NCBI GenBank assembly: GCA_965219455.1
Contig: OZ244744.1
Span: 1,472,001-1,536,000, forward strand
Origin: Candidatus Latescibacterota bacterium
Lineage (GTDB): Bacteria > Latescibacterota > UBA2968 > GCA-2709665
Direction: 5' to 3'
Length of the DNA: 64,000 nt
Each line of letters opens with the position of its first letter. Position 1 is the stretch's first letter. Positions 28,816 through 47,881 of this stretch are shown one piece after another. The notes beneath the pieces were generated by a model that did no database searches, was not told where the DNA came from, and worked only from the letters and a program-made list of their open reading frames with translations. The position numbers and the translations under genes were made by a program.

Positions 28816-29077
28816 AATCTCAGCGGCAACAGACATGTCGGGCAGCCATAATGGATTTTAGTGAAGGCCCGATGCGCAGGAATGTATCTGGCAAGAGACA
28901 TCACAGCGTCCGATCCGGACAGCCGCATTCGCGGCACCACTCTCGTCGCCGTCGAAAAGCTGTCGCGCTAACCTGGCGTGAGGTTTCGCTGGACCGATAT
29001 CGAGCTTGGATTCAATGTCGACGGTGAACGGATATAATTCGCTGTGCGAATTGTTACAAAAACACTGGGAAACCTCT

Positions 29078-30178
29078 ATGACAACGCTGAAGAATGTCGA
29101 GATTAAGGGATTTCGGTCCATCAAAGAGATGAAATTGGAACTCAGACCGCTCAACGTCCTCATCGGCGCCAACGGAGTCGGCAAGAGCAATCTCATTGCC
29201 TTCTTCAAGCTGGTGAATGAATTGATGGGCGGACGCCTCCAGCAACACATCGGCGCGACCGGTCGGGCCACGGGAAATTTGCACTTCGGCCCGAGAGTGA
29301 CGCCTCAACTGGAAGCGAGAATGGTGTTTGAGGTGGCGAACGGAACGGACACCTACAATATGAGACTCTTCCACGCCGCCGGAGATTCCCTGATTTTTGC
29401 TGAAGAAACGCTTGCGTTCCATCAGCAAGGTTATCCCAGTCCGAAAACGGTACAACTGGGAGTCGGCCATCAGGAAACGAAAATTGGAGAAGTGGCAGAA
29501 ACAGGAGAGCCCACGGCGAAGACGCTGAGGGTTTTGCTGAATCGTTGTCGCGTCTATCATTTCCACGATACATCGCCGACTTCGAGAGTCCGGCAATATG
29601 GTTACATCGGAGACAACCGCTGGCTTAAGCCCGACGCGGGCAACCTGGCAGCTATACTTTGCGCGCTCAAGTCCAATAGTGAAACCGACTACCGGCGTAT
29701 TGTGACCGCCATCAGGCAGGTGGCGCCGTTCTTCGATGACTTCGATCTGGAGCCCGCCGATTCACGGGACGTCATTCTCAATTGGCGGCATCGCGAATCC
29801 GATCTTGTTTTCGGCCCTCATCAGCTTTCGGACGGTACATTGCGAGCTATCTGTCTGATTTCGCTACTGTTACAGCCTGTTGAGAAATTGCCGTCTCTGA
29901 TTGTGGTGGATGAACCGGAACTCGGACTGGACCCCTGTGCGGTTGATGTGATTGCCTCGCTGTTTCGTTCCGTAAGCCAGCACGCGCAGGTGCTCGTCAG
30001 CACGCAGTCCAGCGCATTCGTCGACAGCTTCGAGCCGGGCGATATCGTGGTCGTGGAACGAAACAAAGAAGCCACGGAGTTCGAGAGGCCCCAGGCCGAA
30101 GCGCTCGACTCATGGGTGGAGGAATACGCGCTCGGGGAAATCCGGGAAAAGAACACCGTCGGCGACGGGCCGGAATGA
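29078..30178 (+). CDS. AAA_21/ABC-type ATPase of the family normally paired with DUF4276
   Basis: IKGFRSI, GANGVGKSN, LSDGTLR, DEPELGL and STQS. Confidence 0.88.
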   Translation: MTTLKNVEIKGFRSIKEMKLELRPLNVLIGANGVGKSNLIAFFKLVNELMGGRLQQHIGATGRATGNLHFGPRVTPQLEARMVFEVANGTDTYNMRLFHAAGDSLIFAEETLAFHQQGYPSPKTVQLGVGHQETKIGEVAETGEPTAKTLRVLLNRCRVYHFHDTSPTSRVRQYGYIGDNRWLKPDAGNLAAILCALKSNSETDYRRIVTAIRQVAPFFDDFDLEPADSRDVILNWRHRESDLVFGPHQLSDGTLRAICLISLLLQPVEKLPSLIVVDEPELGLDPCAVDVIASLFRSVSQHAQVLVSTQSSAFVDSFEPGDIVVVERNKEATEFERPQAEALDSWVEEYALGEIREKNTVGDGPE

Positions 30179-30194
30179 GGGCTGGCAGTTCCTT

Positions 30195-30452
30195 GTGCCT
30201 GACGCCACGATGCTCCCGATTCATCCGGGAGGGTTACTGCTGCAGGAGCTTCTCAATCCCCTGGGTATCGGCCAATATCGTATGGCGAAAGAGGTCTCTA
30301 TTCCTCCTCGCCGAATTAACGAAATTGTTCCTGGCAAACGGGCCATTTCGGTGGACACTGCGCTTCGGCTGGCTCGTTACTTTGGAACAACGGACGATTT
30401 CATGCAGAAGATAAAATCCAAGTACAACCTTGATAAAAAGCCAACACAATAA
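30195..30452 (+). pseudogene. higA: Degenerate second higA copy
   Basis: PIHPGGLLLQELLNPLGIGQYRM...DTALRLARYFGTTD, colinear with 28510-28715 then diverges; no clear start. Confidence 0.7.
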
Positions 30453-30465
30453 TATACTTGTGTTG

Positions 30466-30903
30466 ATGCTGCCACAAATTAACCACACTACCGGTTATCT
30501 GCCGCCGGGCGTGCACAAAGCGCCATGGACGGAAGTTGCAGCCCGATTCGGCCTGATCGACCATCGTCGTCGGTTACTTGCGGGTTTATGTAATGCACTA
30601 ATAAACCTCGCTCTAGCCGGCTGTGGGGTTGTACTGCTCGACGGGAGCTTTGTTACCCTGAAGCCATTTCCCAATGATTATGACGTGGCATGGGAGCCGC
30701 ATGGTGTTGATCCCAATCTGGTCGACCCCGTCCCGTTCGATTTCGCCAATGACCGCGCAGCGATGAAGGCTAAGTTTGGAGGCGAGTTCTTCCCGGCGGT
30801 TTTCGACGCTGGAGGAGGGATTCTATACCGTGACTTCTTTCTAACGGATCGCAACGGCGTGCAGAAAGGGGTCGTTGAGATCGACCTTTGGAGCCTGCCA
30901 TGA
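30466..30903 (+). CDS. DUF6932-like pol-beta nucleotidyltransferase
   Basis: GYLPPGVH, LLDGSFVT.K..PNDYDV (GS + DxD) and KGVVEIDL. Confidence 0.7.
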   Translation: MLPQINHTTGYLPPGVHKAPWTEVAARFGLIDHRRRLLAGLCNALINLALAGCGVVLLDGSFVTLKPFPNDYDVAWEPHGVDPNLVDPVPFDFANDRAAMKAKFGGEFFPAVFDAGGGILYRDFFLTDRNGVQKGVVEIDLWSLP

Positions 30904-32360
30904 TTGCAAATGAACGGCAGTATCGAATTACTCGATCGTGGGCCAGCCGGTTTCAGCAAGCGCTCGCTACATTCGATAGTGATTCACGCGACGGTGTTCA
31001 CCCAACTCTTATCAAGGCTGAGCGTGACGCACTTCTGAGTCAGCTAGAGAGTTTACATGCCGAAATTAAAGAATACGAACAATTAAAGTCGACTTCCATA
31101 TCGGTCATTTCAGTGTCATCATTCGACAAGTTAGCAGAGGGATTAATCAAAACGCGAATCGCCGCAGGGCTTAGCCAAAAGGAACTGGCGGAGAGACTGC
31201 GTCTAAAAGAACAGCAGATTCAGCGATACGAAGCGGATCGTTACAGGTCGGCTAGCTATCGGCGCTTGGTGGAAGTTGCGGACGCACTTGGTGTCCGCAT
31301 CCGCAACGAAATTCTTCTGCCAGTCGTGCCGACCAATTTACACGAACTGCTGAGTAAACTTAGCCAAGTCGGAATTGATCGAGACTTTCTCCTTACGCGT
31401 TTGCTGACGTCGGCCGACGCGGCACGAATTTCGGGAGATTCCCAAACCGAAGACGAAGAAGCTCTTTCCTTCACTATCGGAACAACCCTTAATCGTGTTT
31501 TCGGTTGGACAGCCGATAGTCTCTTCGGTGCTCATCCGCTAAGCCCTCCAACGATCGCAGCTGCTGAGGCTCGCTTCAAGCTGCCTGCACGACGTCGCCA
31601 ATCGACGACGACCATTTACGCCTCTTATGCTCGCTATCTAGCCCTGGTAGTCGTGAGTGGTTCGGAGAGCTTGCCCCGAGAAACCATTGCTTTGGATCCG
31701 CGTAAAATTCGTGACGACATTGTTGGACGATACGGCGACGTCACACTAGCAGCTACCCTTCGGTACGCCTGGGATCTCGGGATGCCAATTCTCCCATTGA
31801 GAGATCCGGGTTCATTCCACGGGGCCTGCTGGCGGTACTGGGGACGAAACGTCGTCGTCCTGAAGCAGACCTCCAGGCTCGAAGCCCGGTGGTTATTCGA
31901 CCTATTTCACGAAATATACCATGCGGGGCGGAAGCCAGAGACCGAGACGATGGAAGTCATTCTATCAGACCCTACAACTGCCGACAGACGGGGTTCAGAT
32001 GAAGAAATAGCGGCTAGTCGGTTTGCAGGCAATGTCTTGTTGAACGGCCGCGCCGAAGAACTAGCTCAAGCATGCATAACTTCCGCAGGGGGTCACGTAG
32101 CGCGGCTGAAGAGCGTCGTGCCAGAGGTCGCCAAGCATGAAAACGTAGGAGTTGGTGCGCTTTCCAATTACCTTGCATTTCGACTTTCGCTGAAGGACAT
32201 CAACTGGTGGGGCGCAGCTGCAAATCTTCAGCTGCAAGCCGCCGACCCATGGACCACTGCCCGAGACGTATTCGTGGAACGGTTCCCGTTCGAATTCAAA
32301 GATGACATTGACCGTGATCTTCTAACCCAAGCACTAAGTAGTGAGGCAACCTACGAATAA
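30900..32360 (+). CDS. XRE-HTH plus ImmA/IrrE-like zinc metallopeptidase
   Basis: MIANERQYRIT helical N-terminus, HTH GLSQKELAERL..EQQIQRYE, HEIYH (HExxH) and EEIAASRFAG; ATGA overlap with the upstream gene. Confidence 0.8.
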   Translation: MIANERQYRITRSWASRFQQALATFDSDSRDGVHPTLIKAERDALLSQLESLHAEIKEYEQLKSTSISVISVSSFDKLAEGLIKTRIAAGLSQKELAERLRLKEQQIQRYEADRYRSASYRRLVEVADALGVRIRNEILLPVVPTNLHELLSKLSQVGIDRDFLLTRLLTSADAARISGDSQTEDEEALSFTIGTTLNRVFGWTADSLFGAHPLSPPTIAAAEARFKLPARRRQSTTTIYASYARYLALVVVSGSESLPRETIALDPRKIRDDIVGRYGDVTLAATLRYAWDLGMPILPLRDPGSFHGACWRYWGRNVVVLKQTSRLEARWLFDLFHEIYHAGRKPETETMEVILSDPTTADRRGSDEEIAASRFAGNVLLNGRAEELAQACITSAGGHVARLKSVVPEVAKHENVGVGALSNYLAFRLSLKDINWWGAAANLQLQAADPWTTARDVFVERFPFEFKDDIDRDLLTQALSSEATYE

Positions 32361-32491
32361 GGAACTCGCTGCAGAACGTGGTATGACGTGATACCGCCGG
32401 ATAAAGCGGCCAGAGAAACCGGCTGTGCAAACGAAGTGGGCATACGGTTGGGAAGCCAGACACGGAACCATGAGACAGGGCAGAACGAACT

Positions 32492-32898
32492 ATGACCATA
32501 TCAACTACCAAACTGACGTCAGCAGTTGAGAGCTACTTCACAAACCTTCACCAAATCCGCGCTACGGGCGGCGGAACCGGCGAGCGGTCAAGTTATGTAC
32601 CGCTGGCCAATCTCCTTAACGCCATTGGAAAGACGCTCAAGCCGAAGGTGTTTTGCGTAAGCGAATTGGCAGACCAGGGCGCCGGGCATCCCGATTTCGG
32701 GCTTTACACGGCTAACCAAGTACAGAAGGGGCGTCCGCGCCAGGGACAAACGCCGGAACGGGGCGTAGTGGAGGTGAAGCCCCCTGCCGAGGAACTAGGC
32801 GCTGACGGCGTCCGCGATCAGGTCGGGCGCTATCTGAAGAGGTACCACCTTGTGCTGGCAACAAATTTGCGTGAGTTCACTCTCGTCGGCTTGGACGC
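32492..32898 (+). pseudogene. 5' fragment of the Type IIG/ISP-like RM gene (paralogous to 43053-43459)
   Basis: TTKLTSAV...KTLKPKVFCVSELADQGAGHPDFGLY...ERGVVEVK; truncated at a gacgc junction. Confidence 0.92.
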
Positions 32899-33556
32899 TG
32901 AGGGTTTTGCTGAATCGATGCCGCGTGTATCATTTCCACGATACATCGCCGACTTCGAGAGTCCGGCAATATGGTTACATTGGAGACAACCGCTGGCTTA
33001 AGCCCGACGCGGGCAACCTGGCAGCTATACTTTGCGCGCTCAAGTCCAATAGTGAAACCGACTACCGGCGTATTGTGACCGCCATCAGGCAGGTGGCGCC
33101 GTTCTTCGATGACTTCGATCTGGAGCCCGCCGATTCACGGGACGTCATTCTCAATTGGCGGCATCGCGAATCCGATCTTGTTTTCGGCCCTCATCAGCTT
33201 TCGGACGGTACATTGCGAGCTATCTGTCTGATTTCGCTACTGTTACAGCCTGCTGAGAAATTGCCGTCTCTGATTGTGGTGGATGAACCGGAACTCGGAC
33301 TGGACCCCTGTGCTGTTGATGTGATTGCCTCGCTGTTTCGTTCCGTAAGCCAGCACGCGCAGGTGCTCGTCAGCACGCAGTCCAGCGCATTCGTCGACAG
33401 CTTCGAGCCGGGCGATATCGTGGTCGTGGAACGAAACAAAGAAGCCACGGAGTTCGAGAGGCCCCAGGCCGAAGCGCTCGACTCATGGGTGGAGGAATAC
33501 GCGCTGGGGGAAATCCGGGAAAAGAACACCGTCGGCGAAGGGCCGGATTGAGGGCT
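32894..33556 (+). pseudogene. 663-bp near-identical copy of the ATPase 3' half (29521-30183)
   Basis: Constant offset 3373 at both ends; only ~9 substitutions seen by eye; lacks Walker A. Confidence 0.95.
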
Positions 33557-33565
33557 CGACACCTG

Positions 33566-34018
33566 TCAATGCGCAGTTCTTCGCTCGCCAGGTCTGGCAA
33601 GCCATCGTTCGACGTGGCGAGCAAACGTCTCGAAGTCATCCAGTTGCCGGACGAGGAGTTGCCCGATCAGATCGAGGTCGACGTCAAGGTAGCCGTGGAC
33701 GAGCACGTTGCGGAAACCCGCCACAGCCCGAAAGTGCGCTGCGAAATCATCGGGTAACACGTTCATCTCTGCAAGTCGGTCAATGGCGGTTGCGTAATCC
33801 GGCGCATCAAGGCCGGCGGATAATGCCAGATGGGTTGCTACGTCGAGCGCGTTCTGGGCACAGAGATGAAGGCCGCGTTCGACTAACCAGCGAAGATCGG
33901 AATTGTCGCGGAGCTGAGCGGCCGTCGTATCCGAATGCCGACGCAAGTTGCCAACCGCGAAACTCAATGCGGTGAGGTGCCGCCGCACGACAGAGGGATT
34001 CGGTAGTCCGGGAGTCAC
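33566..34018 (-). CDS. hepT: HEPN (DUF86) RNase toxin
   Basis: ERGLHLCAQNALDV and GFRNVLVHGY (RX4HXY). Confidence 0.9.
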   Translation of the reverse strand: MTPGLPNPSVVRRHLTALSFAVGNLRRHSDTTAAQLRDNSDLRWLVERGLHLCAQNALDVATHLALSAGLDAPDYATAIDRLAEMNVLPDDFAAHFRAVAGFRNVLVHGYLDVDLDLIGQLLVRQLDDFETFARHVERWLARPGERRTAH

Positions 34019-34443
34019 CGTTCACCACCGAAGCGAAAACGCCACACCGCATCCATTTTTGCAAGCTGGGGAACAAAGTCGCAGTATCGGGAAACCGCAC
34101 GGCCTTCCCGCGTCGTTGTCGCCGCCAAATCACGGGACAAGACACGTATGCCGTCGCGCAGCACATGGTAGTACAGAGTTGGAGGGGCCTGGTTGAGAAT
34201 CAGGAGATCGATGTCGTTGCTGTGGAGGCCGGCCATGATCTCTGTGATGAGTTGTGCCCGATACCCGAATGTGCTCTTTTCAACGACAGTTTCATCGATG
34301 TAAACGGCGACGTCGATGTCGCTGTGGGACTGTGCCCGGCCGTGCGCGCGCGAGCCGAATAGATAAGCCTCAAGAACCTCCGGGCGAGGTTCGAGCAGGC
34401 TCGCGATTCGCTGGTTCAGGATCTGGCAGGATTTCATTTGCAT
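34015..34443 (-). CDS. mntA: MNT nucleotidyltransferase antitoxin (start uncertain)
   Basis: YLFGSRAHG...SDIDVAV and DIDLLILN; upstream of and overlapping the HEPN gene. Confidence 0.9.
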   Translation of the reverse strand: MQMKSCQILNQRIASLLEPRPEVLEAYLFGSRAHGRAQSHSDIDVAVYIDETVVEKSTFGYRAQLITEIMAGLHSNDIDLLILNQAPPTLYYHVLRDGIRVLSRDLAATTTREGRAVSRYCDFVPQLAKMDAVWRFRFGGER

Positions 34444-34569
34444 GTCGGCGGTCTGTGTCGGCAAGGGAAACTTTCGCCGGCAGGTGACAGGTTTCATGCC
34501 GGCCATATCCGAAACATATAGGAATTAGGGGCAAAGTTCAAGTGTCGCAGACACCCGGAGCCTTGAAAG

Positions 34570-34674
34570 ATGCGTATCACGACCAACCCAGCGACCCGAT
34601 TGACGACTGCAGTTGAGAGCTATTTCACTGACCTTCGACGAATACGTGCGACCGGCGGAGCAACCGGCGAGCGA
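34570..34674 (+). pseudogene. Second, shorter 5' fragment of the RM gene
   Basis: Translates MRITTNPATRLTTAVESYFTDLRRIRATGGATGER versus KLTSAVGVYFTELRRIHASGGGTGER. Confidence 0.85.
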
Positions 34675-34864
34675 TTGCAGACCGAGGCGCGGGCCCTGGA
34701 GCGAGTTGAATCGAATCGTTGGAGCAGATAGCCACTGGCCCTTCCACGGACAACAAGCGGGATGCGTCCAATGCGGGTCTTTTGCTGAATTTTTCCGGGC
34801 CATCCAGTCGGCCAGGGGCGTGCCACGCAGAGCGCAATGCGTCTTTCGACGTTATAGTACGGGA

Positions 34865-35008
34865 GGACATCGCGGTCGTCGAACGAAATAACGAAGCCAC
34901 GGAGTTCGAAAGGCCCCAGGCCGAAGCGCTCGACTCATGGGTGGAGGACTACGCGCTCGGGGAAATCCGGGAAAAGAACGCCGTCGGCGAAGGGCCGGAA
35001 TGAGGGCT
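34865..35008 (+). pseudogene. Third copy of the ATPase 3' end
   Basis: DIAVVERNNEATEFERPQAEALDSWVEDYALGEIREKNAVGEGPE*, ending at tgagggct like the other copies. Confidence 0.9.
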
Positions 35009-35265
35009 CAATGCACGAATCCTGGAGCGAGTTTAATGGAATGGTTGGGGGAGATAATCTCTCGCGCCGGATCGGCATTGCTTTTTTTCCATTCTCCTGA
35101 ATGTCTGAACGAACAGACACTTGCCGAAACAGTCTTGAAGCCGTACATGGTGAAAATTGGCGTCTATATGCAGAAACCCACCCTCATCATACCCTACCCC
35201 CTTTCCAAAGTGTCCAATTCTAAACCGGTTGTTCTGTCAAGAATTAAATCGTTCTTGACATTTCT

Positions 35266-38200
35266 ATGAGTTCTACTATGGCGCAGCCGAAATACTTGAA
35301 TCAAGGCGTCAATTATCTTGGCTTCCTGTCCAAACAGCTTGGCGACCTTCGTGGTATAACAACGCTGGCACATGAGCTTATCCAGAACGCGGACGATGCG
35401 AAGGATGATGCAGGCGTCTTCTCCGCCACGCGAATCACCTTCGATATCAGAGACGACGCTCTGATTGTCAGCAACGATGCAGCCTTCAGAGAGATTGACT
35501 TTGATCGGATGCGTGACGTTGCCGGTGGTTCGAAGCGCAGTGAAGAAGGTGGCCGCACGACTGGCGCATTCGGGGTAGGCTTCGTCTCCGTGTACCAGGT
35601 GACCGACAGGCCGGAGATTCATTCATCAGGCCGCCGGTGGACCATGCGCCCCGATGAGCCGGAAGACCAACGGATAGAACAGCATAGCGATTCCTCAATC
35701 ACTAAAGATAAAGGTGCTGTCTTCAAACTCCCGTGGGCCTTTGAGGAATCAGTTGTACGCCGCGAGTTAAAAGTCTCGCCGGTTAATCGAGACAGGATAG
35801 ATTCGTTTGTCAATGAGCTCAAGGATTCATTACCGAAGGCAATCCTGTTCCTGAAGAATCTCAACACAATCGAGTTGCGTCGCAGCGGCAAGTCTGTTAG
35901 ATGTGTAACAAGGGTCGTTGATGGGAACCAGATCATTGTCTACCATGACGGTGTACGCTTGACTTGGCGAATCGTAGAAGGTGAATTCATGGAAAATGCT
36001 TGGAACCTAAAGTCCCAGTTCCCCTCAGATGTTGAGAAAAATCGTGAAGACCGTGTACGGATCGCGATTCCTAATGCACTCCTTAACGATGGATTGTTAT
36101 ATGCGACTCTGCCAACTGAACAGTCAACGGGACTGCCGTTTCACATTGATGCAGACTTTTTTCCTGCCTCAGATAGAAAAGAAATCATGTTTGAAGACAC
36201 CCGAGACCACAGGTCGGAGTGGAACCGCGCGGCAATACACGCAGCCGCCACCGTGTTTAGAGACAACCTGGACCCGCTACGAGGCATATTTAGACAGGAT
36301 GCCTTAACCTTTTGGGCTGTCCTGAATTGCCTGCAGAATGTATACCAGGAGCACAGAGACAACATCCGGAAGCCGTTGGGAGCCTTCTGGAAGACGCTGC
36401 TTCCTTCCCTGCAAACTTCCCCAATTGTATATACAGAATCGGGAAAATGGCTCGAGCCGACCCAGGTCCGTATCCCGACAGGTTCCGAAGAAGAAGAGGC
36501 TGTCTCGGTGTTTGGCACTCTGGGTATAGAGATAGTCCATCAAGACCTATGGAAGTACCGCAATATCCTTACACGCAAGGACTTGGGCGTGGAAAAGGTA
36601 GCGATCAGAGATGTCTACGAAGCACTTGATATGAGAGAACTGACTGAACACCCTCAGCCTGTCCCTTGCGATTTTCAAAATCATGATAGCCTGGAACTGT
36701 TGTGTAAGGGAATTCACGGGATACTGAAAAATACTCCGGGTCAACCCGCGAGACAGGAGGCTGAACGGATGTTGAAGCAGTGCTCGTTAGCACCAGGATT
36801 AGATGCACGACTCTGGCCGTGTGGTTCAGTTTACCTAGCCGACAATCGTACTCGCGAAATCTTCGCCAATCTGATGCCACCTGACAGATCGTTCTTGGCC
36901 AAAAATCAGATCCCTTTGATGGATACGCTCTGCCCTCAATTCGGGATCAGTAGCGCTATTAAAGAGTTGGAACGTCTGGATACTGAAAGATTCAAGATAG
37001 CTTGGAAAGGCGGCAGTTTCGATCCGGTAGCCCTGCTCAGGTGGTTTGACGACAACAAGAAGGAGTTGTCAGAAGACAACAAGCTGCGTGAAAGACTCGC
37101 AAGAATCCCAGTTTTCCCATCTGCGGAAGATCTGCATCCACTGGACGCGTTGCGGCTGCCAGGTGGTTTTGATGACCCGTTGAAAGAGACTGACCTCGTG
37201 GATATGATAAGGCTTGGAGGTTTTAGAGATTTCTTGCGCTTTCTGAGTGCCAAAGAACTCACATTCACAGACTATGTAGAAAACTACGTTTCGCAAGCGT
37301 TTGCTCCCAACAGTGTTGTAAGCATGAAGGTCAAACACAAGCTCCTGGACATTCTGTCAACCCGCATCGGTGAGATTGGGCAGGATGAATGGCTAAAGAC
37401 CAAGCTCGCTGAAACAAACATCGTTGAATGTACAGATGGTGAATTCAGGCAGCCGAACGAAGTTTACTTCTCCTGTAAGGAGGTTCAAGAGGTCCTCAGA
37501 AACTCTGTCCACTATGCACGTCTTCCTAAAAAATCGGAGGGTAGAACAGAGTTCTATCGCTGGCTGGGCGTCGAGAGTCGTCCTCGCCCCTATGACGTAT
37601 CGCAATTCATAGACGAATTAACGGCCGTAACACCCAATCAAAACTCCACACACGTAACGAAGAGAATCCTGGAGATCATAGGAAAGACCTTCCCAAATCT
37701 TCCAGATAATGTGAAGAATTGCTATCGAGTCCTTCAAAGCAAAGCGTGGCTGCTATCCGAAAGTGACTCAAGTAAATGGTACAAACCTGGCCAACTCTAT
37801 GCTGCTTACAATAAGAACCTCTTCGAGTCCCAGGCACAGTTCATAGATTTGCCCGTCGGGATCCAGCGACGAATCAACGATTTCCTCAGATATTTGGGAG
37901 TCAATCTCAGCCCTCAGCCATTCCATGTCGTTCGCCATCTGCTTGAATGTTCTAAGGGTGACGATGTGCCCCCCAAAGGTATCTATCAGTGGTTGAACGA
38001 CAATACACAACCTGGCGACCTCAAGGAGTTGCGGGATCCCGCATGTTTTCGGGTTGGAGATAAGTACCTCCGGCCAGACCAAGTTTTCTGGGGTCAGCAT
38101 CATTTTGGCAGATTCCGCATCCAACTGGGGCCTGACCTTCTATTGTATCAGGATCTTCTCCGAGCACTCAACGTCAGAGAAATGCCTGATTACAGCGATG

Positions 38201-39813: not shown

Positions 39814-42803
39814 AGGATCTCCAAATGACCAAACTGCAAGCCAACAAAAAGGTCAGATACAAGACCGACCCGTCCATCGCCGGCTGGCTCGTCAGCATCT
39901 CTGGAGAAGGCGCCAGAGTCTTCATTGACGGGTCTGAGAAGCTCGTGCCTCTCACCGAGCTTGAGCCGGCCCCCGGCCTAACGGAGATGGGTCCCGATGC
40001 GTTCAGGACTGCCCTGACCCGGCGCAGGCTGGAGCATCCCTTGACGGACCAGTTTCTCTCATACAAGGCTTCCAGAACCGACCTTTACTACCATCAATTC
40101 CTGCCGGTCAAGAAGATGCTGGAATCGTCCGACCAGCGCCTCCTAATTGCGGACGAAGTAGGTACGGGAAAGACCATCGAGGCAGGCCTAATCTGGGCGG
40201 AACTGGAATCCAGAGCAATACACGGCCTTGAAAACGTATGGATAATCTGCCCCAAGTCCCTCGTGGGAAAATGGCAAGACGAGATGCTTCAACGATTTGA
40301 CTTCCGGCTCGAAACCCTGTCATCCGAAGGTCTTCGCCAAGCATTGGTGTCCCTAGAACGGGATGGTGTTCTACCTCCCAGGTTTGCCAAGTCCATAGTC
40401 AACCTGGAGCTCATCCGGGCAGAAGAGCATTTGGCAAGGTTAAGCGAAACGTCCATCGCATGGGACTTTGTCATATTCGATGAAGCCCACCATCTACGCA
40501 ATCCTGAAACCCTGTCGTATACCCTGGCTGCCTTCATTTGTGAGCGATCGAAGGCTGCGGTCTTCCTTACTGCTACTCCATTGCAGACCAGTCTGGACGA
40601 CATTGTTCACCTTATGGGAGCACTGGGCGTCGACGTAGCAACAGACCCCGGCCTGCTCGAAGATCAGATACGCTGGGATATGGAATTGAACGACTGGATT
40701 CGCTTAGTTAGGCATCAGCCGCCGGGGTGGAGGCAAGAGCAGGATCGCGTGATGCGTCGTCTGGAATCGGATGGAGGACGCGACCGGCCCGGCTGGGGCA
40801 AATTCCGGCAGCTTGTGGCCAAGTCAGACCTAGAAGACAGAGGGCAACGGACCGTCGCGGTCGAGGCGGCTCATGACCTGCAAGTGTTAAGCCCCTATAT
40901 GACGCGAACGATTCGTTCAGATGTGGACGAGGACAGGCCGACGCGAGAGGCCATTACAAGGGTTGTGAAATTTAGTCCCGAAGAAGAGACATTTTACAGG
41001 GAAGTCTATCGTATCTGTCTGGAACGTGCCTTGGAAAAAGGTGTACCCCCAGGATTTGCAACCCAAATGCCGGAACGCCGAACAGCAAGCTGCGTTCCAG
41101 CCGTAGCTTCGGAGATCCTCAGATACGCAACAGAACATGAAGACGAAGAGCATAGAGCGCGATTTACACCTGGTGAAATCGACGCCTTGGAACCGCTCGC
41201 GCGAGTTGCGCTGGGTTCGCAAGATCAGAAACTGGAAGCGCTTTACGAGATACTGGAGTACTTATTCGGTGAGCTGAAGACTGACAGGGTGATGATCTTC
41301 TCCACTTTCAGGGGGACCCTTCATTACCTCAAGGAGAAGCTCAGCGAAAAAAGCTATTCGCTGGAGCTAATGTATGGCCCTGTACCAGCCAGAGACGAAG
41401 ATTGCCGCCGCGGTGAAAAGAGCAGAGAACGGATTGGGGTAGAGTTTCGACGAGGCGACTTCCAGATCCTCCTCGCCAGCGAAGTCGCCGGTGAAGGCCT
41501 GGACTTCGAGCACTGCCATGTCGTCATAAACTACGATCTTCCCTGGAACCCTATGCGGGTCGAGCAGAGGATTGGCCGATGTGACCGGCTTGGTCAGCGC
41601 TCCGACAAGGTCTATGTCGGGAGTCTCGCCAGCACAGGAACGATCGAACAACGGATTCTGTCGCGGCTGTACGAAAGACTGGACATCTTCGAGCGTGCCC
41701 TTGGTGACATGGAGGTCATTTTGGGCGAGGAGGTCGCCTCGTTCGAGAGAGACGTGTTCACGCGTGGCTTGTCCACGCAGCAACAGGAAGAGCGTCTGGA
41801 GAGGATCAGCCAGGCAATAGAAAACAGAGAACAGCAACGGGAATCCATCACTCAGTCGAGCGTTATTTCCTTACAAGGTCGCCAGTTGATTGAGTCCGAC
41901 CAGCAAGAGATAAAAGAAGCTGAGGCGAGGTTCCTGTCCCCGGAAGAGGTGTCAGAGTTCGTCTATGCTTCTCTTGAGAGCCATCTTCCCAACAGCGTGA
42001 AGAGAGCCTCAACCAAGGGTGAATTCGAGGTCAACGGAACCAGGGATCTGAGGGATGCGCTCCAGGAATTACTGAGAAGTTATCCGGCTACTCACTATGC
42101 TCGGACCGAGATTGTTCGCTTTCGCACTCGCATAAACGAACAGAAAAAGACTAAGATTTCGTTCTTGGGAGATGGAGATGATATGGAATTCGCTCACATC
42201 CGGCACCCCTTGGTGCTTCTGGCGCGGCATCTGGCGCAAGAGCCGCTCTCCGAAATCCCGTATTGCCTGGGTGTGACCCCAACGATGGTGGTAGATAGTC
42301 CTACGATGCTGGTTTGGGCCGTGGGTTCACTTGAAGGCTACACGAACCGTGCCGAGCTTCTTTGTGCAACTATCGATTTCGCCACGGGCTCAGCCAGCCC
42401 TATCTCCGTCAATCAAGCACAAGAGTGGATGTGCGCGTTATCACCGCCTCAGGGTGAACAGGGCAACGTCGATGCCGACATAGAAACGCTAATGCTACAA
42501 GCCGAGCAGACTCTATTATCTCAATTTGACCGCCTTGCCACGACCTTCAAGTCGAGGAACGACCTGCTAATGGATAAAGCAAAACAGGCAGTGCGCTCTC
42601 ACGCCGAACGCACGCTCAGTCGGAACAAGCGTCAGCTATCACGGAACGACCTCAAAGACAACATAAGAAATCTCTATCGCGGCTGGAACCGGCGGATCGA
42701 GGCTGAGACGCAATCCAAGATGGATGAGATAGAGCAGAAGAGCCAGACCCGTTCATCTCTCGAGATAATTGGAGTGGCGATCATTCATCAAGAAAATAAC
42801 TGA
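39810..42803 (+). CDS. SNF2/RapA-like helicase
   Basis: LIADEVGTGKT, DEAH, LTATP, GEGLD and YDLPWNPMRVEQRIGRCDR; GTGA overlap with the upstream gene. Confidence 0.92.
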   Translation: MKDLQMTKLQANKKVRYKTDPSIAGWLVSISGEGARVFIDGSEKLVPLTELEPAPGLTEMGPDAFRTALTRRRLEHPLTDQFLSYKASRTDLYYHQFLPVKKMLESSDQRLLIADEVGTGKTIEAGLIWAELESRAIHGLENVWIICPKSLVGKWQDEMLQRFDFRLETLSSEGLRQALVSLERDGVLPPRFAKSIVNLELIRAEEHLARLSETSIAWDFVIFDEAHHLRNPETLSYTLAAFICERSKAAVFLTATPLQTSLDDIVHLMGALGVDVATDPGLLEDQIRWDMELNDWIRLVRHQPPGWRQEQDRVMRRLESDGGRDRPGWGKFRQLVAKSDLEDRGQRTVAVEAAHDLQVLSPYMTRTIRSDVDEDRPTREAITRVVKFSPEEETFYREVYRICLERALEKGVPPGFATQMPERRTASCVPAVASEILRYATEHEDEEHRARFTPGEIDALEPLARVALGSQDQKLEALYEILEYLFGELKTDRVMIFSTFRGTLHYLKEKLSEKSYSLELMYGPVPARDEDCRRGEKSRERIGVEFRRGDFQILLASEVAGEGLDFEHCHVVINYDLPWNPMRVEQRIGRCDRLGQRSDKVYVGSLASTGTIEQRILSRLYERLDIFERALGDMEVILGEEVASFERDVFTRGLSTQQQEERLERISQAIENREQQRESITQSSVISLQGRQLIESDQQEIKEAEARFLSPEEVSEFVYASLESHLPNSVKRASTKGEFEVNGTRDLRDALQELLRSYPATHYARTEIVRFRTRINEQKKTKISFLGDGDDMEFAHIRHPLVLLARHLAQEPLSEIPYCLGVTPTMVVDSPTMLVWAVGSLEGYTNRAELLCATIDFATGSASPISVNQAQEWMCALSPPQGEQGNVDADIETLMLQAEQTLLSQFDRLATTFKSRNDLLMDKAKQAVRSHAERTLSRNKRQLSRNDLKDNIRNLYRGWNRRIEAETQSKMDEIEQKSQTRSSLEIIGVAIIHQENN

Positions 42804-42854
42804 CGTTCAAGTTACGCGAATGTATACATCGTATGATGCCAATCGCAGGAGTAG

Positions 42855-43046
42855 ATTGAAAGTGATCAACATTCGGCTCCCTCGAAGTGGATCATTGACC
42901 AATTTTCCGAATACTCCAAATTGGAAGCGGACCCGCAGATGGCCGAACCCATAGATATGGATACCATTCGGTTCAAATGTCCTCACTTCAACGCGTGTAT
43001 TGAGCGACTTGAGATACTCGAACGGGAACCAACAAACGGGCCATAA
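42855..43046 (+). pseudogene. 3' remnant of a DUF4276-like (RloB-like) nuclease gene
   Basis: Reads HSAPSKWII..EYSKL..PQMAEPIDMDTIRFKCPHFNACIERLE*, matching the APSKR...IR..CPHF..W...LE C-terminus typical of DUF4276. Confidence 0.7.
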
Positions 43047-43052
43047 CGAACA

Positions 43053-46000
43053 ATGAACAAGACAACGACAAAACTCACGTCAGCGGTTGGGGTGTACTTC
43101 ACCGAACTTCGAAGGATCCACGCCTCTGGCGGCGGAACCGGCGAGCGGTCCAGCTATGGACCGCTCGCCAATCTGCTGAACGCTGTTGGAAAGACGCTCA
43201 AGCCGAAGGTGTTCTGCGTAAGTGAGTTGGCCGACCAAGGTGCGGGACATCCCGATTTTGGCCTTTACGAGGCGAAGCAGGTCCAGAAGGGTCGTCCACG
43301 CCAGGGACAAACGCCGGAACGGGGCGTAGTGGAAGTTAAAACCCCTGCCGAAAATATGGGCGCATCGCAGGTTCGGGGCCAAGTCGTGCGCTATCTGAAC
43401 CGGTACAGCCTCGTGCTGACCACCAATTTGCGAGAGTTCGCTCTCGTCGGCCCGGACGCGACGGGTGGAGAGACGTTGCTCGAGCGCTATCGTCTCGCCA
43501 ACACCGAAGAAGAGTTTTGGCACAAATTGGACAAGCCGCGCGCCTTTGCAAATGAGGTCGGCGCAGGTCTGGGCGAATACCTGGTCCGTGCGCTATCCCA
43601 CCACGCGGCGATCTCCGAGCCAAAAGACCTTGCCTGGTTGCTCGCCTCATACGCCCGCGATGCCTTGGCGCGGGTGGAGGCCGCTGACGATCCAAAGTCG
43701 CTGGAGGCAATACGGTCGGCGCTGGAAGAGTCGCTCGGAGTCCGCTTCAAGGAGGAGCGAGGCGCGCGTTTTTTCCACTCCACCCTGGTGCAGACCCTCT
43801 TCTACGGCATTTTCTCCGCGTGGGTGCTATGGGCGCGACAAAAACCGGCGACCGGGAGCGGGTTTAATTGGCATGAAGCCGTCTGGCATTTGCGCACGCC
43901 GGTAATGCAGGCTCTGTTTCAGCAGATATCGCAGCCAGATCGCCTGCAGCCACTCGGTCTCGTGGAGGTGCTGGACTGGACGTCCGTCGCGCTCGATCGG
44001 GTGGACCGAGACACCTTCTTTTCCCGTTTTGACGAGGGGAAAACCGTAACCTATTTCTACGAACCGTTCCTGGAAGCCTTCGATCCCGATTTACGAAAGC
44101 AGTTGGGCGTCTGGTACACCCCGTCTCAAGTGGTGCGCTACATGGTTGCCCGTGTTGATAAGGCGCTCAAGGACGACCTCGGGATCGCGGATGGGCTTGC
44201 CGCGGAGAACGTCTACGTGCTGGACCCGTGCTGCGGAACCGGAGCGTATATCGCAGAAGTCCTGCGCCGCATTGCCGCCAATCTCGAAGGACGCGGCCTC
44301 GGAGCGCTTGCCGGTGCGCGGGTCAAGCAAGCGGCCACCGAGCGCGTGTTCGGCTTCGAGATCATGCCGGCGCCCTTCGTCGTTGCCCATTTGCAGGTCG
44401 ACCTCGTCCTGAACGATCTCGACGCGGCGCTGGCAGATAATGGATCGGAACGTGCAGGCATCCTTCTCACCAATGCGCTGACCGATTGGGAGGGCACGGG
44501 CGAGGGATCGCAGACGGTTGCCTTTCCCGAACTTCAGGAGGAACGCGACCGGGCCGGGAAGGTGAAGCAGGACACACCGATCCTCGTAATTCTCGGCAAT
44601 CCGCCCTACAACGGCTTCGCCGGCATGGCGGTGGACGAGGAACGCGAGTTGTCGGATGCCTACCGCTCGACCAATCTCGCACCTCCACCCGTGGGGCAGG
44701 GGCTGAACGACCTATATGTTCGCTTCTTCCGCATGGCCGAACGGCGCATCGAAAAAACTGGCAAAGGCGTGGTGTGCCTTATCTCCAACTATTCCTGGCT
44801 TGATGGCTTGTCATTTACCGGGATGCGAGAGCGCTATCTGGAGACTTTTGACGCGGTCCGGATTGATTGCCTGAACGGGGACAGATACAAGAGCGGGAAA
44901 GTCGCACCGGACGGTTCGCCGGACCCGAGCATCTTTTCAACCCAGGGTGCCCCGGTTGGTATCCAGGTCGGCACCGCGATTGCGACACTCGTGCGCAAAT
45001 CTGACCACGCCCCTTCTGAGTCAGTCGGATTTCGCCATCTTTGGGGAAAAACCAAACCCGCGGAATTGATTGAGACGGCGGAGGCCGAACCAAGTGCGCT
45101 CTACGACCGTGTTGAGCCAGTCTTGCCGCTCGGCTTGGCTTTCTTCCCGGTGGCAGTGAGCAAGGGCTGGTTCGACTGGCCGCCGCTCCCGGAACTGTTT
45201 CCGACCTCCTTTCCGGGCGTAACCACAAACCGCGACTCATTTCTTGTCGACATCGACCTTGATCGCCTCAAGGTTCGTGTAGGCGACTACTTCGACTCCC
45301 GCCTAAGCCATGAGGAAATTAGCCAACGCTATCCGGTGGCCATGAAGGCTACGACTTCAATCCCGAAAAGTCCAACTTCAGTGCGCGACGCAAGACTCCT
45401 CTTAGGCGGACCTGCTAAAGCTGGGTTCATTCGTTATAGCCACCGGCCGTTTGACACCAGATGGCTTTATTGGGAAGCGGAATCTGGTCTGTTGGCTCGC
45501 CCATGCCCCGACTTTCGGGAGCACGTATTTGGTAGAAATATGTGGATTGAAGCTCGCCAACGAGAGTCACGGGACTTCTTCTCACGAGGAACATTCGTAC
45601 GCCATCTGGCTGGCGATCTTGGTAACGGGCGATCACACTACTTCCCGGCATGGCTTCGCGACCAGGTCTTTGGGAAAGAAATCGATGGAGTAAAATGTAG
45701 CCCAAATTTGTCGGAGATTGCGCAACGCTATCTCAACGTTTTGGGATTGAACGTAGAAGACCTGTTCTATCGTGCCCTTGCCGTACTACACGATCCCGTC
45801 TACCGAGATACAAATGCTGGCGCCCTTAAGATGGAATGGCCGCGCATTCCTCTACCCGGCTGGCCTGATGGCAAAGCTGAAGGCGCAGCGCAGGCCCTCG
45901 CCGAATCGGCGGCCCGAGGACATGAACTGGCCAGCCACCTCGACCCCGACGCAGCCGTACCGGGTGTAACCGAGAGCCCTCTGCGACCGGAAATCGCGGC

Positions 46001-46409
46001 CATTGCCGTACCCTCAAGAATCGACTGGCGAAATATGTCAGGCGACGATTTCGCGCTTACGGCAGGATGGGGACACTTCGGGGCGGGCGAAGCGGTGATG
46101 CCGGGGCAGGGCCGCGTCGAACAGCGAAAATACACGGAGTGCGAACGGGCCACGCTGGGTTTGGCTAAATCTGTGCTGGGTGACAATACGTACGACATAT
46201 ATTTGAACGAAAAAGCCTTCTGGCGCAACGTTCCGGCGAGGGTCTGGGACTACAAACTTGGCGGCTACCAGGTACTCAAGAAATGGCTGTCCTATCGTGA
46301 GCGGAAGGTGCTCGGACGGGTGCTCAATCCCGACGAGGTGGCGTACTTTGCGGAGGTGGCAAGGAGGATTGCGGGGATATTGACGTTGACAGGAAGAAGC
46401 GAGGAATGA
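43053..46409 (+). CDS. Type IIG / Type ISP-like restriction-modification fusion (nuclease, N6-adenine MTase, specificity domain)
   Basis: PDFG..VVEVK nuclease motif, GVWYTP, LDPCCGTG, GNPPY and C-terminal GGYQVLKKWLSYR. Confidence 0.9.
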   Translation: MNKTTTKLTSAVGVYFTELRRIHASGGGTGERSSYGPLANLLNAVGKTLKPKVFCVSELADQGAGHPDFGLYEAKQVQKGRPRQGQTPERGVVEVKTPAENMGASQVRGQVVRYLNRYSLVLTTNLREFALVGPDATGGETLLERYRLANTEEEFWHKLDKPRAFANEVGAGLGEYLVRALSHHAAISEPKDLAWLLASYARDALARVEAADDPKSLEAIRSALEESLGVRFKEERGARFFHSTLVQTLFYGIFSAWVLWARQKPATGSGFNWHEAVWHLRTPVMQALFQQISQPDRLQPLGLVEVLDWTSVALDRVDRDTFFSRFDEGKTVTYFYEPFLEAFDPDLRKQLGVWYTPSQVVRYMVARVDKALKDDLGIADGLAAENVYVLDPCCGTGAYIAEVLRRIAANLEGRGLGALAGARVKQAATERVFGFEIMPAPFVVAHLQVDLVLNDLDAALADNGSERAGILLTNALTDWEGTGEGSQTVAFPELQEERDRAGKVKQDTPILVILGNPPYNGFAGMAVDEERELSDAYRSTNLAPPPVGQGLNDLYVRFFRMAERRIEKTGKGVVCLISNYSWLDGLSFTGMRERYLETFDAVRIDCLNGDRYKSGKVAPDGSPDPSIFSTQGAPVGIQVGTAIATLVRKSDHAPSESVGFRHLWGKTKPAELIETAEAEPSALYDRVEPVLPLGLAFFPVAVSKGWFDWPPLPELFPTSFPGVTTNRDSFLVDIDLDRLKVRVGDYFDSRLSHEEISQRYPVAMKATTSIPKSPTSVRDARLLLGGPAKAGFIRYSHRPFDTRWLYWEAESGLLARPCPDFREHVFGRNMWIEARQRESRDFFSRGTFVRHLAGDLGNGRSHYFPAWLRDQVFGKEIDGVKCSPNLSEIAQRYLNVLGLNVEDLFYRALAVLHDPVYRDTNAGALKMEWPRIPLPGWPDGKAEGAAQALAESAARGHELASHLDPDAAVPGVTESPLRPEIAAIAVPSRIDWRNMSGDDFALTAGWGHFGAGEAVMPGQGRVEQRKYTECERATLGLAKSVLGDNTYDIYLNEKAFWRNVPARVWDYKLGGYQVLKKWLSYRERKVLGRVLNPDEVAYFAEVARRIAGILTLTGRSEE

Positions 46410-46517
46410 CCGGATGGACAGAAAGCAGTTTGTGCGGCCCGAGAAAGGACACTCTATATTAAATGTCCGTTTACCGCCGTGAACGTGGCATTGCAGCACA
46501 ATAAGTGTGAGGACGGG

Positions 46518-47381
46518 ATGAATTGGCAATCTTACGAAGAATTGGTAAAGGATATCTACGAGCAAATCGGAAAATCGGCTGGCGTCAAAATCGAATGTTG
46601 GGGGCCAACTTGCAAAGTCAAAGGAAAATCCGGCAACTACCATCAGGTCGACGTACTGACATCCCATAGTGATGGGATTCACATATACAAAACGGCGATT
46701 GAATGTAAGCACTGGAACGAGAAAGTTGACAAAGATCCAATTGCCAAGCTTGCAGTGATTCTCGAAGACGCAAGAATTGAAAAGGGCATCGTGGTTTCAC
46801 AATTCGGATTTACGGCTGGCGCGAGGAAATTGGCGGAATACAAGAACATAGGTCTTGTCGAACTGCGAGAGCCTGTGAATGACGATTGGGATGGTTTGAT
46901 AAAGGACATTCATATAGATGTTCACGTGGAAGTTCCTGAACTATATGATTTCGAATTCGTCCAGAGCGACACAACGGATGAAAGCAAGAAAGAAAACATT
47001 CGTGTATTGAATACTGACGTCCGTATCCATTTACTAAACGGAGATACATTATCTCTTCACGAAATCACGAATCGAGTCCTTAGCAATCCTAAGGCTGACG
47101 AAAAAGCCACTGATGCAGAGGGTTTCTGCTGGTCTGAATTGCATTCACAGGAAAATGGCGAACAAGCCTTTGATGTGAGGTTTCCTGATGGTACCTCTTT
47201 ATCGGTCCCTGTACGAGAGGGTAGTGCGAAAATCAGAGAAATCCGCTTTAAGGTGCGGCACAGACAATACACCGAAAATATCCACATACGTGGCGAAGAC
47301 TACGTTTCTTGGATAATGCTTGCCATTTTCGAAAACAAGCGATTCGCAATTGGCCCAGATGGCACCGTTCGATCGTTTTAG
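46518..47381 (+). CDS. Mrr-cat-like restriction endonuclease with C-terminal domain of unknown function
   Basis: YEELVKDIY, GKSG..HQVDV and AIECKHW; AT-rich. Confidence 0.8.
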   Translation: MNWQSYEELVKDIYEQIGKSAGVKIECWGPTCKVKGKSGNYHQVDVLTSHSDGIHIYKTAIECKHWNEKVDKDPIAKLAVILEDARIEKGIVVSQFGFTAGARKLAEYKNIGLVELREPVNDDWDGLIKDIHIDVHVEVPELYDFEFVQSDTTDESKKENIRVLNTDVRIHLLNGDTLSLHEITNRVLSNPKADEKATDAEGFCWSELHSQENGEQAFDVRFPDGTSLSVPVREGSAKIREIRFKVRHRQYTENIHIRGEDYVSWIMLAIFENKRFAIGPDGTVRSF

Positions 47382-47529
47382 CGGTGATTTTTACGACGAC
47401 TTTCTCGGGCGCCACGATCAAGCGTCCTCTGGTAACGCGCTTCTCGGTTGCCGCAGTAAGGTGCGGCAGATGCCCGAACAGCCAATCGGCGCACCTGCCG
47501 TGAATGTAATGTCAGACAGGTACAGTCAG

Positions 47530-47704
47530 GCGCAACGTTCCCGTTGCGATCTGGAACTACAAACTCGGCGGCTATCAGGTGCTCAAGAAATGGCTGTCCT
47601 ATCGTGAACGGAAAGTGCTCGGACGGGCGCTCAAGGCCGACGAGGTGGGGTACTTTGCGGAGGTAGCGAGGAGAATAGCGGGGATATTGATGTTGACTGG
47701 TAGA
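47530..47704 (+). pseudogene. Displaced 3' end of the RM gene (paralogous to ~46223-46397)
   Basis: RNVPVAIWNYKLGGYQVLKKWLSYRERKVLGRAL..DEV.YFAEVARRIAGIL. Confidence 0.92.
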
Positions 47705-47881
47705 AACGACCTTCACCGATCGCAACGATCAACATGATTGTACTCTCAACCTCGGAGGCTGCAATTGTCGAGGCTTGGCCCGGTGATCGTTTCTCAGTTG
47801 AGTAGTGAATCATCATTAACAGGAAACGTCTCAGGCGAGAACCGCAGCGAATTGAATAACTCTGGGGAAAATGCACTCTTC

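Follow-up and report, generated by a model that had tools for sequence, protein, structure and literature searches.

A recombinase-free defence island in a Latescibacterota chromosome, probably built by serial additive recombination

The window analysed here is a stretch of 64,000 nucleotides (nt) from Candidatus Latescibacterota bacterium (GenBank assembly GCA_965219455.1, contig OZ244744.1, positions 1,472,001 to 1,536,000) and lies in a single closed contig of 5.84 Mb. It contains a defence island in which three units with different cargos stand head to tail in one chromosome, set between copies of an ATPase gene and copies of a type IIG restriction-modification (RM) gene, and only the leftmost ATPase gene and the rightmost RM gene are complete. 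The locus is probably a recombinase-free hotspot of defence genes in the chromosome, at which recombination has added units one after another. Additive, one-sided recombination is the most economical reading of the polarity of the array, the gradient of stub decay, the variable breakpoints and the pattern at the 3' end of the RM gene.

The region from 24 to 52 kb of the window was compared with itself by BLAST (search space 28 kb), and the E-values of 0 to 8e-13 exclude chance, so the repeats are real. The 3' end of the ATPase gene at 29521-30183 recurs at 32894-33556 (98.6% identity over 663 nt, E=0). A third copy, only 143-185 nt long, lies at 34866-35008 (93.7% over 143 nt, 2e-57; 85% over 188 nt in the gapped alignment of 34824-35008). 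All three copies end on the same base, 5 nt beyond the stop codon. The 5' end of the RM gene at 43025-43459 matches 32464-32898 (79.6% over 436 nt, 1e-105), and this repeat takes in 28 nt 5' of the coding sequence (CDS). Within the first RM stub, R1, the segment 32514-32586 matches 34601-34673 of the second stub, R2 (80.8%, 8e-13), and R2 as a whole (34548-34673) is about 70% identical to the RM 5' end. A sequence-only reading of the window had placed the ATPase ends at 30183, 33556 and 35008 and the RM starts at 32492, 34570 and 43053, and had held that only the outermost copies are complete; the list of open reading frames (ORFs), in which the three RM copies start with ATG, and the self-comparison confirm these positions, and the completeness of the outermost copies alone was likewise found. 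The array is polar, with the complete ATPase gene leftmost beside the conserved flank and the stubs shrinking and decaying rightward, from 663 nt at 98.6% in stub B to 143-188 nt at 85-94% in stub C.

Further repeats, which had gone unlisted in the sequence-only reading, involve other genes. The antitoxin gene higA is repeated at 28508-28748 and 30193-30433 (81%), its 3' end at 28767-28819 and 34665-34717 (83%), and the 3' end of the RM gene at 46219-46402 and 47526-47709 (86%). The higA 3' end is also the source of a 45-nt element, found at 28797-28841, 34695-34739 and 35021-35065 and nowhere else in the 5.84-Mb genome; two of these copies stand on either side of the ATPase stub C, forming direct repeats at a distance of 326 nt. 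It was considered as a recombination site and rejected, since its three sites lie within the locus only and no role can be assigned to it.

The ORFs of the window were scanned with profile hidden Markov models (HMMs) of Pfam, PADLOC and NCBIfam, and the features named below lie on the plus strand unless stated otherwise. The conserved left flank of the island is a gene for a TonB-dependent-receptor-like outer-membrane protein (25007..28045; Pfam OMP_b-brl_4, 1.7e-83). After it come higB (28177-28437; HigB-like_toxin, 1.5e-11) and its toxin-antitoxin partner higA1 (28504-28815; HigA TIGR02607, 115.5 bits against a cut-off of 47.7). Unit 1 starts with copy A, a complete gene for an ABC-type ATPase (29006..30178), which is HEC-01A-like and without a TOPRIM partner (PADLOC HEC-01A, PDLC04175, 2.1e-132, profile positions 4-362 of 363; Pfam AAA_21, 3.9e-26). 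The next gene, higA2 (30195..30452), is a 3'-truncated second higA copy (77.6 bits with TIGR02607; 81% identical to 28508-28748) that begins 12 nt past the end of the ATPase homology, and the higA homology stops at the start of a DUF6932 gene (30430-30903; Pfam DUF6932, 8.3e-29). A gene for an HTH/M78-like protein of 490 amino acids (aa) follows (30888-32360; HTH_3, 1.1e-10, with a weak Peptidase_M78 match), and the unit closes with R1 (32464..32905, CDS from 32492), a stub from the 5' end of a type IIG RM allele that has diverged. The cargo had been read as a truncated higA, a nucleotidyltransferase and an HTH-peptidase; the higA copy and the HTH/M78-like protein stand, and the supposed nucleotidyltransferase belongs to DUF6932.

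Unit 2 consists of the ATPase 3' stub B (32887..33556, aa ~170-390; PADLOC HEC-01A, 7.5e-89 on the fragment), hepT and mntA on the minus strand, the RM stub R2 and a higA remnant. The hepT (33566-34018; 85.8 bits) and mntA (34015-34506; 78 bits) genes both score above the NCBIfam equivalog cut-offs of 60, overlap at 34015-34018 and represent a type VII toxin-antitoxin pair; hepT/mntA had been read here before as well. R2 (34548..34673, CDS from 34570) is the short 5' stub of a second RM allele, and the remnant of the higA 3' end lies at 34665..34739. Unit 3 opens with the ATPase 3' stub C (34824..35008), the second local copy of the 45-nt higA-3'-like element (35021..35065, 80% identical to 34695-34739) and, at ~35078..35195 within ORF 34937-35269, a degenerate 5' remnant of HEC-01B (DUF4276). 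Outgroup sequences share 75-79% identity with 35111-35182, and the translation of the ORF aligns with the N-termini of DUF4276 proteins of outgroups; in the Pfam and PADLOC scans no HMM matched the remnant itself. The cargo proper comprises a sacsin-like TmtA protein of 1515 aa with a predicted role in defence (35266-39813; PADLOC TmtA, that is Tiamat, PDLC03969, E=0, 1060.9 bits, residues 6-1294 of 1515) and a DrmD-like SNF2 helicase (39810-42803; PADLOC DrmD, 7e-103). These two agree with what had been read, and the HNH domain once assigned to the sacsin-like protein was found neither in the Pfam scan nor in two sub-regions at E up to 1. The complete RM gene, R3 (43053..46409), matches the profiles PADLOC REase_MTase_IIG (1.3e-83), Pfam Type_ISP_C (1.3e-35) and N6_Mtase (1.9e-8) as a single polypeptide and is a predicted type IIG enzyme.

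Downstream of R3, a low-GC cassette for an Mrr-type restriction endonuclease (46479..47381; Pfam Mrr_cat, 3.2e-14; GC 0.446) separates the RM gene from the displaced 3' stub of an older RM allele (47526..47709), which is 86% identical to 46219-46402 and 90.5% identical to the RM 3' end of the related genome G006. A minus-strand ORF at 47378-47725 is a mere antisense of this stub. The GC contents of Mrr (0.446) and TmtA (0.497) are low against 0.583 for the genome, which was counted as a sign of foreign cargo. In the loci of relatives no tblastn match to the Mrr cassette was found.

No machinery of the usual kinds was found. Pfam detected no integrase or transposase domain in the 57 ORFs scanned in the 64 kb, no tRNA gene lies in the window, no Rfam family reached its gathering score, and self-comparison gave no inverted repeat of at least 40 nt. 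Moreover, the genome holds no second copy of the island. The absence of integrase, transposase and attC from the array, which had been noted from the sequence alone, is thus confirmed for the 64 kb.

The junctions can be read base by base. At junction J1 (32894-32905), a three-way alignment shows that RM nt ~414 is joined to ATPase nt ~516 across GACGCTGAGGGT, a microhomology of about 12 nt; RM homology runs through 32905 and ATPase homology starts from 32894. At J2 (34665-34673), RM nt ~95 is joined to the higA 3' end across CGGCGAGCG, 9 nt by alignment. The sequence after mntA was compared in 12 genomes, partly by eye. In G011 (locus L028), an RM stub identical to R2 runs up to CAACCG (6 nt) and is there joined to ATPase nt 603, and in G001 and G009 the RM stub is joined to ATPase nt ~1108 across ATGG, as judged by eye. 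The region upstream of mntA is joined to ATPase nt 1066 in G002 and G008 and to nt 1021 in G010. In G003, G006 and G014 higA or higBA is followed by the ATPase from nt 908, G007 (L033) has the same type of J2 junction as the window, and G012 (L031) and G004 (L035) have no stub after mntA. By our own arithmetic, a random join shares at least 9 nt with P ~4e-5 and at least 6 nt with P ~2e-3. The microhomologies are short and GC-rich, and they were compared with proxies of both parents. Junctions on microhomology agree with the homology-facilitated illegitimate recombination that the sequence-only reading had invoked.

Contigs and runs from other studies bear on the two junctions unequally. Two other studies have contigs that span J2 (X10 record 14, 34637-34948; X11 record 22, 34568-34903), and run X1 carries the joint of the G011 type, 34660->29614. 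Among the contigs listed none crosses 32894-32905, X6 record 26 ending at 32767, and an exact search with 36 nt across J1 in the metagenome contigs of the Joint Genome Institute (JGI) gave 0 matches; both results are neither for nor against J1. X10, X11 and X1 cover 28000-35300 and hardly any of 35304-42607 (TmtA-SNF2), which is not evidence of its absence. In X10 and X11 a joint 46137->47546 of low depth (2-4, with 26-35 at its side) was left unused: it skips 1408 nt, out of step with the 1307-nt spacing of the RM 3' repeat, and maybe comes from other organisms.

The divergence of the copies differs between the two genes. R1 and R3 differ like diverged functional alleles, as had been supposed, with a synonymous divergence (dS) of 0.72, a ratio of nonsynonymous to synonymous divergence (omega) of 0.19 and 108 of 134 residues identical. 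Against the alleles of G011 and G013 (L029), R1 has a dS of 0.89-0.98, R1 and R2 are only 70% alike, and the RM stubs overall are 70-80% alike. In a tree of RM 5' ends R1 stands on its own branch of 0.21 within the genus clade and is not sister to R3, which stands beside G013 and G011. Between ATPase copies A and B there are 9 differences in 663 positions (dS 0.039), 4 of them no more than 90 nt from J1. Both copies share derived states against G011, to which the identity of each is about 94-95%. The segment hepT-mntA-R2 is 98.6% identical to G011 (33557-34666) and 97.9% to G013 (33557-34673), while the ATPase is 93-95% and the outer-membrane gene about 91% identical to these two genomes.

The loci of 20 relatives, 14 of the same genus (L028-L041) plus outgroups, were compared by tblastn. 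The outer-membrane gene lies directly upstream of the ATPase in 13 of the 14 genus loci (86-93% aa identity); in the remaining genome, G007, it had no tblastn match. The ATPase gene occurs in all 14 other species of the genus (84-95% aa) and also in several other genera of the order. What follows it varies: mntA is present in 13 of the 14 loci, hepT in 5, a Dsr1-like SIR2-DUF4020 protein in 6 and the RM gene in 7, and G014 has a type I RM system in place of the RM gene. HNH, Schlafen, CBASS, ApeA and TIR genes lie further downstream in the relatives. Cargo variation at this slot had been set beforehand as the point on which the sequence-only reading could fail; the cargo does vary among the 14 relatives, at the same site, so that the reading does not fail there. 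Extra ATPase 3' stubs were found in 9 of the 14, with breakpoints at ATPase nt 603, 908, 1021, 1066 and ~1108, against 516 and ~1000-1036 in the window. G013 has the simple form ATPase-hepT-mntA-complete RM, and G011 matches the window minus unit 1. In G013 and in G057 (L043, another family) a complete RM gene stands right after mntA, where the window has the stub R2.

Several details of these loci were seen in addition. By tblastn, hepT is missing from 8 of the 13 relatives with mntA (L030, L032, L033, L036-L039 and L041), which would leave an antitoxin without its toxin beside the ATPase. In G011 (5111-5260, oriented) and G013 (5156-5305, oriented) a stretch of about 150 nt separates hepT from the ATPase end; it is missing in the window, where hepT comes directly after stub B. 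The type IIG RM gene of G012 (oriented 9799-14324) is interrupted by an opposite-strand gene for a DDE_3/IS630-like transposase of 361 aa. Stacking at the RM 3' end like that of the window is seen in G057 (oriented 12496-18500), whose complete RM gene has two RM 3' stubs downstream, the second (aa 1077-1115) shorter than the first (aa 963-1100), and other genes in between.

The cargos themselves are distributed differently. The first is absent from the 14 genus genomes, and the other 52 genomes of the order hold only paralogues of at most 50% identity. The DUF6932 gene and a gene for an HTH/M78-like protein of about 480 aa lie side by side in 78 of 80 loci (L048-L127) drawn from many phyla, with a best identity of 63%; hosts include Alphaproteobacteria, Cyanobacteria, Chloroflexota and Vibrio, and the pair probably represents a mobile module, either toxin-antitoxin-like or for defence. 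Of 168 genomes of the phylum, 3 carry TmtA-like genes. As to the arrangement of unit 3 elsewhere, the TmtA copies of G027 and G105 have no ATPase, SNF2 or RM gene nearby.

In this order the ATPase and RM genes are found as neighbours without forming a single system. The ATPase end is overlapped, in five outgroup loci, by a gene for 247-255 aa, and the three of these genes that were scanned are DUF4276/HEC-01B. Among 80 metagenome loci HEC-01B lies directly 3' of the ATPase in most that leave room, and the RM gene takes that place in one, L188. The gene order is ATPase-HEC-01B-RM in G046 and ATPase-RM in G052, and the ATPase-HEC-01B-RM order of outgroup genera is a recognisable starting state. 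The sequence-only reading had set the ATPase and RM genes as conserved anchors on both sides of a variable slot; the variable cargo holds, and a fixed anchor pair or a single system does not, because HEC-01B is the usual neighbour of the ATPase, the RM gene is limited to half of the genus loci, and higA and the RM 3' end are also points of breakage or anchorage. A single ATPase-RM system with embedded cargo, Hma-like or MADS-like, was rejected since HEC-01B and not RM is the usual follower of the ATPase. Matches to MAD2 and MAD3 score far short of the cut-offs, the SNF2 protein matches HmaA only in second place (8e-50, DrmD giving 7e-103), and SNF2 is absent beside the RM gene in relatives.

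HEC-01B is not adjacent to the ATPase of the window; only the degenerate remnant after stub C survives. A tblastn search of the 14 genus loci with the ORF of the remnant (orf110), and not with HEC-01B itself, found nothing comparable 3' of the ATPase. Though orphaned of HEC-01B, the ATPase is under purifying selection (omega 0.09-0.17). It is kept intact in 14 species of the genus, where HEC-01B was not seen beside it, and it may act alone or with another partner. HEC-01 has been described as a pair of ABC ATPase and TOPRIM protein that gave no protection in the authors' assays, according to the accessible part of that report (Payne et al. 2024, 10.1101/2024.01.29.577857).

In the mechanism proposed here, the hotspot would sit downstream of the conserved outer-membrane gene and the HEC-01A-type ATPase gene. 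Donor DNA from related strains would carry the conserved left part, the ATPase, with a different cargo; its left side would pair by homology with the resident copy, and its non-homologous right end would be joined via microhomology inside the resident ATPase or higA. Each such event would install a new complete ATPase with its cargo and shift the older unit to the right with a 5'-truncated ATPase stub, the RM gene of the incoming unit being cut down to a 5' stub. Unit 1 would then be the newest, and a like process at the RM 3' end would have added the Mrr cassette. From these scars we infer the direction and order of events, the incoming DNA and the status of the stubs as inert relics. The 663-nt repeat of copies A and B could delete unit 1 via homologous recombination, and pop-out or amplification of individual systems is conceivable in the same manner. 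Toxin-antitoxin cargo may select against the loss of a unit, and truncation of incoming RM genes may itself have been selected.

The evidence for serial addition is of several kinds. The RM stubs are alleles and not fresh copies, simple forms and recurring stubs occur in relatives, machinery is missing from the 64 kb and the cargo appears foreign. The hepT-mntA-R2 segment is closer to G011 and G013 than the flanking outer-membrane gene is, and independent DNA from other studies carries J2 and the joint of the G011 type. A complete upstream gene is followed by 5'-truncated copies with three different cargos, and the joins rest on microhomology (about 12 nt at J1, 9 at J2, 6 in G011) without a common site, at breakpoints which differ between genomes.

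Other observations weigh against this reading. First, copies A and B are close (dS 0.039) while the RM stubs of the same units stand at dS 0.7-0.9; a donor so remote in its RM gene would not be expected to be so near in its ATPase, and a conspecific donor, gene conversion or an in-situ duplication is needed. Second, no simple donor allele of unit 1 (ATPase-higA'-DUF6932-HTH-complete RM1) was found in the loci of the 20 relatives, in 80 contig loci or in 53 genomes of the order. Third, J1 is known from this assembly alone. Fourth, J2 is shared with G007, a more distant species with an ATPase of about 87% identity; therefore the junction of units 2 and 3 is old or recurrent and not recent here. 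J2 may have recurred at the best available microhomology or may be an old inheritance; unit 1 alone looks recent, and part of the array may be inherited. Fifth, the RM-stub ends of three junction types lie within about 25 nt of each other and could come from one ancestral structure trimmed by deletions. Finally, natural transformation or another route of DNA uptake is not demonstrated for this organism.

The closeness of copies A and B, which at 98.6% and with shared derived states against G011 look like recent copies made in one genome, is an argument for an in-situ tandem duplication. One illegitimate (sister-chromatid) exchange from RM nt ~414 to ATPase nt ~516 would have doubled the segment [ATPase 3' - cargo - RM 5'] inside a single genome; homologous recombination with foreign alleles would then have replaced the cargo of one copy, the stub serving as left arm. 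The microhomology of J1 suits such an exchange equally well. It remains an unlikely origin, albeit one to be taken seriously. At least two events per unit would be needed against one for the additive model, R1 shares only 70% identity with R2, and duplicated cargo has left no trace. Moreover, duplication alone leaves the same polarity at the RM 3' end and in nine relatives unexplained.

A bolder extension of serial addition takes the stubs as working homology arms, and we regard it as a speculation with rather little chance of being right. The ATPase 3', RM 5' and RM 3' ends would together make an "integron without integrase", to which cassettes are added from kin while old ones are kept. Two filters would operate: incoming RM genes would survive only when truncated, so that self-restriction is avoided, and toxin-antitoxin cargo (higBA, hepT/mntA and perhaps DUF6932/HTH-M78) would penalise loss by recombination between repeats. 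The ATPase would be retained as a docking arm or as a shared sensor for a downstream effector.

The clustering of the left ends of the junctions, in the first ~100 nt of the RM gene or just upstream of it, with right ends from higB to ATPase nt ~1108, would also be expected if an old tandem of two island versions ([ATPase-hepT-mntA-RM...] and [higBA-ATPase-...-RM]) had existed in the ancestor of the genus and been trimmed by independent microhomology deletions. The presence of mntA in 13 of 14 relatives at species-level divergence and the sharing of J2 with G007 are in keeping with this. The old tandem covers the junction of units 2 and 3, not J1, and is improbable even there. G013 and G057, the latter of another family, have an intact RM gene directly after mntA, and an ancestral tandem would itself need an additive event. 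In addition, the window, G011 and G013 are closest relatives with three junction types, yet their hepT-mntA genes are 98-99% identical, so exchange between lineages is needed anyway.

Integron cassette arrays and the accretion of cis-mobilizable elements (CIMEs) at tRNA genes also give head-to-tail stacks in which the newest unit lies beside the conserved end. Unlike them, the locus has neither attC (no Rfam hit at gathering score) nor an integrase by Pfam in the 64 kb, and its unit boundaries are variable, without a fixed core site. A CIME-like accretion of integrative elements at the ATPase 3' end, as at tRNA genes and with the recombinase encoded elsewhere, is very improbable. Its classical picture is a complete target gene to the left of displaced 3' fragments, as seen here, and all three ATPase copies also end on the same base. 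Against it, the stub 5' ends range from nt 516 to ~1108 (516, 603, 908, 1021, 1066, ~1108 and ~1000-1036), RM stub lengths vary and there is no common core site beyond gene homology. No recombinase, tRNA gene or inverted repeat of at least 40 nt was found in the 64 kb, the rest of the genome not having been searched for a recombinase. An assembly artefact, in which strain variants of a hypervariable locus were concatenated, would fit with J1 being seen only here and with a locus that varies between related species, so that co-existing strains could differ, but hardly deserves credence, since the genome is one closed contig, joins between non-homologous genes on 9-12 nt are not the product of an overlap assembler and rarely that of a random chimeric read, J2 is bridged in two other studies, and the separately assembled G011, G007, G001 and G009 have equivalent junctions.

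Serial addition at the island has known counterparts, and the locus adds a new example of such recombination from a setting in which it is little documented; no new machinery is indicated. Homology-facilitated illegitimate recombination was reportedly defined by experiment in transformable bacteria, in work said to be that of de Vries and Wackernagel in 2002, Prudhomme and co-workers in 2002 and Meier and Wackernagel in 2003. The locus shares with it one homologous anchor and a join at a few GC-rich matching bases and differs from it in that the process is read here from scars in an organism without a known uptake route.

For the effector-immunity modules of type VI secretion (T6SS) of Vibrio cholerae, a "sequential displacement" has been described, for which the authors propose homology-facilitated illegitimate recombination and which they relate to Rhs orphan strings (Kirchberger et al. 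2017, PMC5361080). Those arrays likewise have a conserved upstream anchor, an added module, older modules kept downstream as orphans and no specific integration site. Here, unlike there, the cargo is anti-phage and toxin-antitoxin, the stubs come from both the upstream ATPase and the downstream RM gene, and the junction microhomologies are readable. The orphan arrays of Rhs and contact-dependent inhibition (CDI) genes, explained by "C-terminal displacement" (Poole et al. 2011, PMC3150448; the model is summarised in PMC5361080), similarly show a complete gene and then 5'-truncated 3' fragments, each with its own cargo. The displaced piece there is the variable toxin tip of the same gene, whereas here the ATPase is constant and the cargo consists of separate genes.

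Core defence hotspots without mobile-element genes are a further likeness; transfer via flanking homology has been suggested for them and their construction called an open question (Johnson et al. 2023, PMC10250203). Like the island, they lack an integrase and vary in defence content at a fixed site between conserved genes. The island, which is in a different phylum, differs from them by its internal stubs of anchor genes, none being described in the accessible part of that paper. The HEC-01A family was originally noticed as cargo embedded within Hma and further multi-gene systems (Payne et al. 2024, 10.1101/2024.01.29.577857), where defence genes also lie between other defence genes; unlike in those systems, the ATPase and the RM gene here are not one system and HEC-01B has been lost. 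The accessible passages of that text do not contain the terms "recombination", "fragment" or "truncated" and do not deal with the origin of embedding. In a search with a limited library and limited terms, no report of anchor-gene stubs in anti-phage islands was found.

New biochemistry is not indicated. The value of the locus lies in its joints, visible base by base, and in a genus-wide series of intermediates with a recognisable starting state. It could serve as a worked example of how islands grow by one-sided homologous recombination and microhomology joins, as has been proposed for T6SS, Rhs and CDI. It also bears on the open question of how integrase-free hotspots arise, as this question is put in the accessible text of Johnson et al. 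(2023, PMC10250203). A warning for annotation follows as well: in a defence island, a short ORF annotated as "ATPase" or "methylase" can be the displaced end of a gene.

The island continues to the right of the displaced RM 3' stub. An uncharacterised overlapping pair of genes for 186 and 443 aa (47738-48298 and 48286-49617) has no match in Pfam, PADLOC or NCBIfam; it recurs jointly in the same island of 6 of the 14 relatives and is a candidate two-gene defence module. Beyond it are genes for a TIR protein (50236-51480; Pfam TIR_2, 1.1e-12) and a SLOG-TIR protein (51462-52862; LD_cluster2, 4.3e-71, plus ThsB_TIR), and this adjoining pair recurs in G004 with 79-84% aa identity.

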